This document shows positions 45,151 to 45,558 of a stretch of DNA of 64,000 nt, piece after piece. The DNA comes from a virus, in the UHGV virus genome UHGV-0057547, one strand, 5' to 3'. The translations under genes and the position numbers were made by a program. The notes beneath the pieces were generated by a model. It ran no database searches. It was given only the letters and a program-made list of their open reading frames with translations, and was not told the DNA's origin. Position 1 is the stretch's first letter. Each line of letters begins with the position of its first letter.

Positions 45151-45279
45151 CTAATTGATAAGTAATAAAAGAAATCCCCCTAATATCATCGCAATGCCTA
45201 ATATTAGTTGACCACACATTAAATCTATTATTCCTATAACTATATCAGCACAACCTATAACAATCCAAAATTTATCCAC
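45151..45279 (-). CDS. Hydrophobic micro-protein 1 of a tandem triplet (42 aa, GTG start)
   Basis: RBS GGGAG, 7 nt, GTG. Product (M)DKFWIVIGCADIVIGIIDLMCGQLILGIAMILGGFLLLLIN. Confidence 0.5.
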   Translation of the reverse strand: MDKFWIVIGCADIVIGIIDLMCGQLILGIAMILGGFLLLLIN

Positions 45280-45283
45280 TTTA

Positions 45284-45418
45284 TCACTCCCATTTAACAA
45301 ACAATAAATAAAATCCTGTTAATAACATTGCAATACCCATCATTATTTCACCATTCATTAAATCTATTATTCCTACAAGTATGTCACATATACCTACAAC
45401 CCTACAAACCTTATTCAT
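45284..45418 (-). CDS. Hydrophobic micro-protein 2 of a tandem triplet (44 aa)
   Basis: RBS GGAGAG, 8 nt, ATG. Product MNKVCRVVGICDILVGIIDLMNGEIMMGIAMLLTGFYLLFVKWE. Confidence 0.55.
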   Translation of the reverse strand: MNKVCRVVGICDILVGIIDLMNGEIMMGIAMLLTGFYLLFVKWE

Positions 45419-45429
45419 TTTATACTCTC

Positions 45430-45558
45430 CTATTCAATGACTTTTAAAAGAAATCCTAATATTATCATTCCCATACCTAATAGTATTTCGCCACACATTA
45501 ACTCTATTATTCCTATTCCTATATCTATACCAGCTATAATAAGGATAGTTTTATCCAT
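45430..45558 (-). CDS. Hydrophobic micro-protein 3 of a tandem triplet (42 aa)
   Basis: RBS GGAGGAATG, then ATG. Product MDKTILIIAGIDIGIGIIELMCGEILLGMGMIILGFLLKVIE. Confidence 0.55.
   Translation of the reverse strand: MDKTILIIAGIDIGIGIIELMCGEILLGMGMIILGFLLKVIE

Follow-up and report, generated by a model that had tools for sequence, protein, structure and literature searches.

Small membrane proteins make up a large and mostly unannotated share of phage genomes. In the virus genome UHGV-0057547, of which a stretch of 64,000 nucleotides was analysed (the whole of this stretch is referred to as the window), three consecutive minus-strand open reading frames (ORFs) between positions 45,151 and 45,558, here named pepA, pepB and pepC, specify hydrophobic peptides of 42, 44 and 42 amino acids (aa). 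Are these micro-ORFs genes, and if so what might their products do? A first-pass annotation of the same DNA had compared them to bacteriocin-like or pore-forming peptides, type I toxins, and membrane-depolarising or superinfection-exclusion factors. This list is narrowed here, with bacteriocins, type I toxins and holins disfavoured and a membrane-acting accessory factor retained. The family is new to curated libraries, yet of a kind that is familiar and abundant in phages, small hydrophobic proteins with no assigned function.

Coding evidence and operon structure

A listing of all ORFs of at least 20 aa, and a reading of the minus strand over 44900-45800, recovered the three ORFs with the peptide sequences first described (Table 1). 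They are consecutive, each in a different frame, and are annotated by public gene callers. The GGAG-type ribosome-binding site (RBS) reported 7-8 nt before each ORF is present in all three cases, and each site overlaps the stop or final codons of the gene before it, in the arrangement of translationally coupled genes. GTG is the start codon in 21 of the 32 family genes listed (L001-L033), pepC included; pepA starts with ATG in the window and with GTG in most relatives. Pairwise, the peptides share 17, 23 and 22 identical residues over 42 ungapped positions (40-55%), above the maximum of 16 reached in 20000 peptide shuffles, which bears out the tandem paralogy proposed at first pass, and three consecutive ORFs of at least 42 codons arose in none of 5000 dinucleotide shuffles of the region. 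The perfect 10-bp terminator that had been placed after the set is found at 45130-45106, and terminator-like sites number five in the region against 0.2 expected.

Profile searching of 5.8 billion proteins returned 54 homologue clusters, and 77 with a broader profile, all of them 35-70 aa long, unnamed and metagenomic; there were no matches between E = 2.6e-4 and E = 10. The earlier concern that the ORFs might be poorly conserved in relatives is not borne out, since they are intact in the 77 clusters, and also in 15 of 33 informative IMG/VR loci, even where the upstream gene (the DUF1599 gene described below) is only 64-79% identical. Family members differ in length by whole residues, and the second codon position is the least variable. 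When random substitutions were simulated at the observed divergence, the frame stayed open and equally hydrophobic in 1-3% of trials, and all shared glycines were retained in 2-7%.

The ratio of nonsynonymous to synonymous polymorphism (pN/pS) is approximately 1.0 for the peptides, versus 0.25 for the adjacent DUF1599 gene at the same loci. We do not read this value as a sign of non-coding DNA, because a GC (guanine plus cytosine) content of 25% leaves few synonymous options, and because most changes are first-position exchanges among I, L, V and M, with the second position varying least. The ratio of nonsynonymous to synonymous substitution rates (dN/dS) was rejected as a coding test, as extreme codon bias and the same I/L/V/M exchanges push it near 1. 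Chance open frames or decaying duplicates in AT-rich intergenic filler would fit the peptide pN/pS, the lack of peptides in many relatives, and a few truncated or frameshifted variants (P0033, P0044, P0053, P0054). Such non-functional ORFs are nevertheless highly improbable in view of the shuffle and mutation tests, the number of intact clusters across lineages of that divergence, glycine codons that are invariant despite the low GC content, and an RBS-start geometry that is kept. The sequence comparisons thus argue that pepA, pepB and pepC code for protein, their core being under strong constraint and their periphery free to vary.

Because a conserved promoter and the terminator bracket the DUF1599 gene together with pepA-C, the four genes form a single operon, running from a promoter of the class used by the replication module to a terminator of its own. 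The promoter element (30-34 nt, TTTACTTTTTATAAAAAG..TAGTATAATATAAG, with the conserved spacer and leader TATAAGTAAATnAGATAAAGGAGAG) is present in four copies in the window where none is expected by chance, and probably marks one temporal class of phage promoters. The first gene product matches PF07659 (E 2.4e-6, 28.2 bits, cut-off 25 bits) and phrog_1485.

A predicted two-helix membrane hairpin

AlphaFold2 models computed from family alignments show a helical hairpin for both pepA (helices 3-21 and 25-41; mean predicted local distance difference test, pLDDT, 91.2) and pepB (helices 3-21 and 25-40; mean pLDDT 93.0), with a three-residue turn at 22-24. Proline occupies position 25, directly after the predicted turn, in some family members (GQPILG, GDPLFG, GIPIFG); among the 43 diverse members compared by column it does so in 3. 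These predictions replace the single glycine-zipper transmembrane helix of the first-pass annotation with two helices, and the conserved glycines are heptad-spaced rather than arranged as GxxxG: G9, G16 and G23 lie on helix 1, and G28 and G35 on helix 2. Seven-residue spacing is the pattern expected for tight antiparallel helix packing.

Column conservation over 43 diverse family members is highest at G16 (43/43), followed by G28 and L38 (42 each), G35 (41) and M31 (40); G23 is found in 36 members, D12 also in 36 with N in four more, and D/E19 in 34. The window peptides have a grand average of hydropathy (GRAVY) of 1.2-1.9 and net charges of -3, -1 and -2. Helix 2 has no charged residues, and the carboxylates of helix 1 would therefore be unpaired within the monomer. 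Since the few Lys and Arg residues are located at the termini and the loop is acidic, an N-in/C-in topology with a short acidic loop outside is the likely arrangement.

Tandem paralogous small peptide genes, each with its own RBS, characterise the aureocin A70, enterocin L50 and garvicin KS operons, and three genes of 42-44 aa so arranged, within a 30-45-aa size range, recall them. That the peptides are secreted, multi-peptide leaderless bacteriocin-like antimicrobials, as one of the first comparisons implied, is extremely improbable all the same: they are anionic (net charge -1 to -3) and uniformly hydrophobic (GRAVY 1.2-1.9) rather than cationic and amphipathic, their operon has no leader, transporter or immunity gene, only the DUF1599 gene alongside, and no family member was found in 185,579 species genomes.

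Type I toxins are proteins of 25-60 aa with one transmembrane helix and a charged C-terminal region, controlled by an RNA antitoxin (PMC10730256). The size, hydrophobicity and phage location of pepA-C fit this description (PMC10730256), the type I toxins of Gram-positive prophages (Fst, BsrG, TxpA and the C. difficile CD0956.2 type) are likewise small, hydrophobic and encoded in phage DNA, and weak promoter-like sites lie on the opposite strand of the peptide region. An interpretation as membrane toxins held in check by antisense RNA, for phage maintenance or abortive functions, is very improbable, however, and this part of the earlier comparison fails on several counts. The peptides have two predicted helices and only 1-4 residues beyond helix 2, with no charged C-terminal tail; they are translated from strong RBSs in coupled fashion within an operon behind a 174-aa gene and form no independent transcription unit; the promoter-like sites number 11 against 12.9 expected from shuffles; Rfam has no match over the peptide region; the mRNA is not unusually structured (z = 0.26); and no prophage of this phage clade turned up among the 185,579 species genomes.

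Searches of Pfam, PHROG, PADLOC and NCBIfam gave no match above threshold for the peptides, and none at E<=10 to the PADLOC anti-phage defence models. Below threshold, the Pfam DUF308 (HdeD-type repeat) model scores 13.6 bits with pepB (E 0.084, threshold 25 bits) and matches 7 of the 43 members at E<=0.1. The NCBIfam model NF040511 ('GPGG-motif small membrane protein', 47 positions, function unknown) gives the one consistent signal; it is of similar length and matches without gaps and in register, residue n falling on model position n (e.g. 5-37 on 5-37). In total, 31 of 43 members match it at E<=0.1 (best 1.7e-5, 24.7 bits, P0050), with 12.6 bits for pepA, 15.2 bits for pepB and no match for pepC, but all scores in the family lie under its curated 33-bit cut-off. 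The family turn reads G-(E/Q)-(I/L/P)-x-x-G, with the consensus (C/N)-G-(E/Q)-(I/L) and no GPGG motif, although some members have a G-x-P turn where the name of NF040511 implies one rich in Gly and Pro. The match may reflect a compositional resemblance of Gly-rich two-helix peptides, and exhaustive searching found no cellular relatives, the phage clade alone being returned by it and by word-indexed searching. By these scores NF040511 would be the closest described relative or look-alike, and not a family to which the peptides belong.

Structural searching adds other phage proteins. Against the PDB, Foldseek found generic helical hairpins alone (E>2). In BFVD the best neighbours are uncharacterised phage proteins of 43-69 aa with template modelling scores (TM-scores) of 0.82-0.86, at Foldseek E values of at least 0.14, which are not significant for so small a fold. 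The top hit among them, A0A8S5MWI9 of Siphoviridae sp. ctsBB38 (43 aa), has 39% identity across 38 columns and probably belongs to the family, and Bacillus phages Taffo16 and Troll encode similar, unannotated hairpin proteins of 67-69 aa.

Array turnover and distribution

The number of peptide genes following the DUF1599 gene varies from 0 to 3. At least one is present in 15 of the 33 informative IMG/VR loci, and in the 18 loci that have the DUF1599 gene and no peptide the slot is filled by unrelated small genes. Every family member found in IMG/VR sits directly downstream of the DUF1599 gene. The turnover is evident even between very close relatives: locus L004 is 98.7% identical to the window in DnaB and 99.2% in the FtsH-like protein, yet has a single peptide gene, the product of which is of the pepA type in its N-terminal half and of the pepC type in its C-terminal half. 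From its sequence, this chimera is what unequal crossing-over through the conserved GIIDLM core would be expected to produce. Other chimeras are the first gene of L002 (L002_1) and P0078. The protein encoded by pepB is identical in L001, L003 and L011, and in the latter two a different pepA allele accompanies unchanged pepB and pepC, having been exchanged independently of the flanking DNA. Since phages with a single peptide exist, no fixed heteromer is required.

A second islet is present in the close relatives L059-L061, where three more copies lie between an NT5C gene and a gene of 178 aa; interspersed with them is the gene for a 131-aa protein, which has Cys motifs and an N-terminal half that is charged and heptad-like. 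The corresponding gap of the window, between NT5C and a 127-aa gene (49482-49713), is an unrelated 232-nt spacer in which no peptide remnants were found. The 127-aa and 131-aa products belong with a protein of 123-136 aa without a Pfam match that adjoins the peptides at two different genomic positions. We read its N-terminal half as a coiled coil, and the C-terminal Cys motifs (CDTG...CPVCG) suggest a Zn-ribbon. In L007, L009, L015 and L016 this protein takes over the start context of pepC (GSDKVD or GSDIMD). A single 1.5-kb contig carries a 111-aa ORF (P0055, L058 438-773) in which a hydrophilic N-terminal part of 72 residues is in frame with the family hairpin; the ORF could be a genuine fusion, in which the hairpin would serve to anchor the protein in the membrane, or else an artefact that arose when a stop codon was lost. 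The interval between the DUF1599 and FtsH-like genes of L038 also contains unrelated hydrophobic ORFs of 48 aa (3706-3852) and 57 aa (5001-5174), and genes for small membrane proteins of any sort seem to accumulate at this slot.

The constant position of the array bears on the idea that the peptides anchor or regulate a neighbour, either the FtsH-like protease encoded downstream or the DUF1599 protein encoded upstream. No membrane helices are obvious at the N-terminus of the FtsH-like protein, FtsH is known to be modulated by small membrane proteins (e.g. SpoVM; PMC10730256), and in IMG/VR the peptides always lie behind the DUF1599 gene in the same operon. Such a partnership is decidedly improbable in the light of several other features. 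The FtsH-like gene is divided from pepC by a terminator and a promoter of its own; the nearby homologue in a second lineage is a 379-aa AAA protein with nothing matching the protease half of the window protein; and in a third lineage, which does have peptides, no FtsH-like gene lies within 6 kb of them. As to the DUF1599 protein, 18 loci keep its gene without any peptide, and the extra copies of the relatives follow the NT5C gene instead.

The family appears, from the searches made, to be phage-only and limited to a single clade from gut and wastewater. When 1.84 billion cluster representatives were scanned exhaustively with HMMER, only 10 clusters reached E<=1e-3, all from this clade, and a pattern scan of the 185,579 species genomes found no family member; in the genome scans the DUF1599 protein gave one weak match, in a Sulfurimonas metagenome-assembled genome. 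The contigs that bear the family were assembled from metagenomes of human gut and wastewater, and the largest of them measure 170-270 kb. Megablast of 44000-47000 against INPHARED gave no match, nor did tblastn of the peptides against phages and plasmids at E<=10, where a low-complexity filter possibly masks hydrophobic peptides. Synteny comparison with C. difficile phage LIBA2945 revealed no comparable peptide islet, an IMG/VR scan with the FtsH-like protein returned matches dominated by the low-complexity pattern DDEDDEDD, and literature searches on the GPGG family and on gut jumbo phages with FtsH yielded nothing relevant. The phage is a large (about 170-270 kb) human-gut phage of 25% GC, and we infer a low-GC gut Firmicute as host, because of this GC content, an endolysin of Amidase_2, SH3_3 and SPOR domains, and a DnaB with 36% identity to its counterparts in C. 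difficile phages LIBA2945 and LIBA6276.

Possible roles and neighbouring genes

What, then, might these hairpins do? A membrane-depolarising or superinfection-exclusion role seems the most plausible class, and we tentatively favour, at somewhat short of even confidence, a reading in which pepA-C are host-membrane modulators or factors of the superinfection-exclusion type: dispensable, membrane-inserted hairpins that act in phage-host or phage-phage conflict. The peptides would be produced in the early to middle phase of infection, along with the replication genes, and each product would be an integral-membrane helical hairpin of 42-44 residues with cytoplasmic termini, inserted without a signal peptide, presumably as other short hairpins are that use YidC. 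The heptad glycines (G9/G16/G23 and G28/G35) would pack the two antiparallel helices. The mostly conserved, membrane-embedded Asp12 and Asp/Glu19 are proposed to drive association inside the bilayer, because they have no basic partner within the peptide; the partner could be other copies, in which case small oligomers would form, or a host membrane protein that offers a basic or polar residue within a transmembrane segment. Recombination through the conserved core would expand and contract the array and create chimeras, and the paralogues would widen specificity, with superinfection exclusion, counter-defence and hijacking of a membrane protein as example roles. A place in conflict is suggested by a copy number that varies, by the chimeras, and by an overall constraint that is weak although the adjacent gene is constrained.

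Several observations weigh against this reading. AlphaFold2 predicts helices readily for any hydrophobic peptide; nine of the 43 members have Q, N, G, Y or S at position 19, and a fourth subtype, of 38 aa, is entirely without D12. A pN/pS near 1 suits relaxed constraint as well as diversifying selection, and the 15:79 ratio of synonymous to nonsynonymous changes is close to a neutral expectation of about 20:74, a hand estimate from site counts. The constant site after a nucleotide-metabolism gene could also mean a functional link and not an insertion hot spot.

The main rival has the same architecture as the favoured membrane modulators and differs solely in the action of the assembly. Here a ring of hairpins would be a minimal viroporin or holin-like pore, its lumen lined by Asp12 and Asp/Glu19, that conducts cations and depolarises the host membrane, whether to shut off the host, to exclude superinfecting DNA or to time lysis. 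The hepatitis C virus (HCV) p7 viroporin and the proteolipid c-subunits of rotary ATPases are helix-turn-helix hairpins with a Gly-rich packing face and a membrane-embedded carboxylate. The predicted peptide architecture resembles theirs, with conserved ridges of small residues and two carboxylates seven residues apart on one helical face, and polar residues in transmembrane helices promote oligomerisation. HCV p7 and the c-subunits differ in being 63-80 aa long against 42 aa, the peptide carboxylates are on helix 1, and there is no sequence or profile similarity. We consider such a pore unlikely: the window has a canonical Hol44 holin, encoded beside the endolysin at another site, the charged C-terminal domain typical of holins is missing from the peptides, the carboxylates are not invariant, and the promoter class is common with replication genes, at which stage an uncontrolled pore would harm infection.

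A more specific form of the pore reading would make these the smallest hairpin 'viroporins' yet, in which rapidly diversifying, phage-specific two-helix subunits of 42 residues, alone or mixed, form Asp-lined cation channels in the host membrane that block the entry of DNA from rival phages. They would be switched on with the replication genes and depolarise just enough to block competing DNA, and the paralogues would be channel variants that escape countermeasures of the host or of rival phages. We regard this version as quite unlikely.

A role as holins proper was considered and is disfavoured. Two-helix holins and pinholins (e.g. S21 68), like the Hol44 holin of the window, are small, oligomerising membrane proteins of phages and have two transmembrane helices, the number also predicted for the peptides, but are about twice the size of the latter; holins have a charged C-terminal domain and lie next to an endolysin, whereas the peptides have neither, lie about 33 kb from the endolysin of a genome that has a canonical holin, and match no Pfam or PHROG holin profile.

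The family is cleanly delimited: it comprises about 77 clusters, its hairpin is modelled with confidence, its conserved residues (G16, G28, G35 and D12) are defined, as are its operon and promoter class, and it shows array dynamics that include unequal crossing-over, chimeras and two islets, and it offers an experimentally tractable entry to the roles of tiny intramembrane peptides in large gut phages. Should the peptides be true exclusion factors or minimal ion channels, they would be a useful minimal model; otherwise they are a well-characterised case of accessory-gene turnover, and no current view is overturned.

Around the islet (Table 1) lie genes for NT5C, a DnaB-like helicase, the DUF1599/SH3 protein, the FtsH-like protein with AAA+ and M41 domains, primase pieces, ThyX and dCMP deaminase. 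This agrees with the first placement of the peptides between the FtsH-like gene (AAA+, Peptidase_M41) and replication genes, the DnaB-like helicase gene being on the other side, and also with their placement outside the lysis cassette, which is at 10290-11947, about 33 kb off.

Table 1. Locations of the peptide genes, their expression signals and associated features, in the window unless a related locus is named.
Feature	Location	Strand	Description
pepA	45430..45558	-	ATG 45558; stop TAG 45432-45430; 42 aa: MDKTILIIAGIDIGIGIIELMCGEILLGMGMIILGFLLKVIE
pepB	45284..45418	-	ATG 45418; stop TGA 45286-45284; 44 aa: MNKVCRVVGICDILVGIIDLMNGEIMMGIAMLLTGFYLLFVKWE
pepC	45151..45279	-	GTG 45279; stop TAG 45153-45151; 42 aa: (M)DKFWIVIGCADIVIGIIDLMCGQLILGIAMILGGFLLLLIN
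pepA Shine-Dalgarno	45573-45567	-	AAGGAGG, 8 nt 5' of start; overlaps stop of upstream gene
pepB Shine-Dalgarno	45430-45427	-	GGAG, 8 nt 5' of start; overlaps pepA stop
pepC Shine-Dalgarno	45291-45287	-	GGGAG, 7 nt 5' of start; formed by last codons of pepB, TGG GAG
Intrinsic terminator	45106..45130	-	10-bp stem, 5-nt loop, T-run; end of operon
DUF1599 gene	45572..46096	-	174 aa; first gene of operon; SH3-like N-terminus and DUF1599 ('nucleotide modification associated domain 1')
Promoter element	46122..46156	-	TTTACT-17-TATAAT with conserved spacer and leader; heads DUF1599-pepA-pepB-pepC
Promoter copy	42911-42944	-	before primase-like genes
Promoter copy	45015-45049	-	before FtsH-like gene
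Promoter copy	48361-48395	-	before gene block ending in DnaB
Terminator of preceding DnaB gene	46181-46152	-	
FtsH-like gene	42995-44854	-	AAA+, AAA_lid_3, Peptidase_M41
Endolysin	10290-11654		Amidase_2, SH3_3 and SPOR
Hol44-family holin	11669-11947		ORF of 92 aa; adjoins endolysin
123-136-aa protein	49098-49481	-	127 aa
123-136-aa protein	L007 6665-7057		
123-136-aa protein	L009 6806-7198		
123-136-aa protein	L013 6826-7197		
123-136-aa protein	L059 1572-1967		
Second islet	L059 1246-2118		
Second islet	L060 1689-1953		
Second islet	L061 71-807		

Three minor observations concern other genes of the window. Unlike cellular FtsH, the FtsH-like protein has an N-terminal region of about 200 residues with an acidic low-complexity stretch and no obvious membrane helices. 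Upstream of its gene and behind a promoter copy lies a 28-aa ORF (MITEIIVYLNKIKFSENCLTFNKIFSII, 44890-44976, minus strand) with a strong AAGGAGG RBS, which shares the start MITEII with the 48-aa hydrophobic ORF of L038 and has within it another promoter-like sequence, TTGACT-17-TATAAT (44922-44894), a short distance before the FtsH-like gene; this ORF may represent a leader or a remnant. Finally, the plus-strand block just before the lysis cassette contains, at 6271-8249, a subtilase (Peptidase_S8) gene and a protein with NUMOD3 motifs, a motif that we take to be associated with homing endonucleases.

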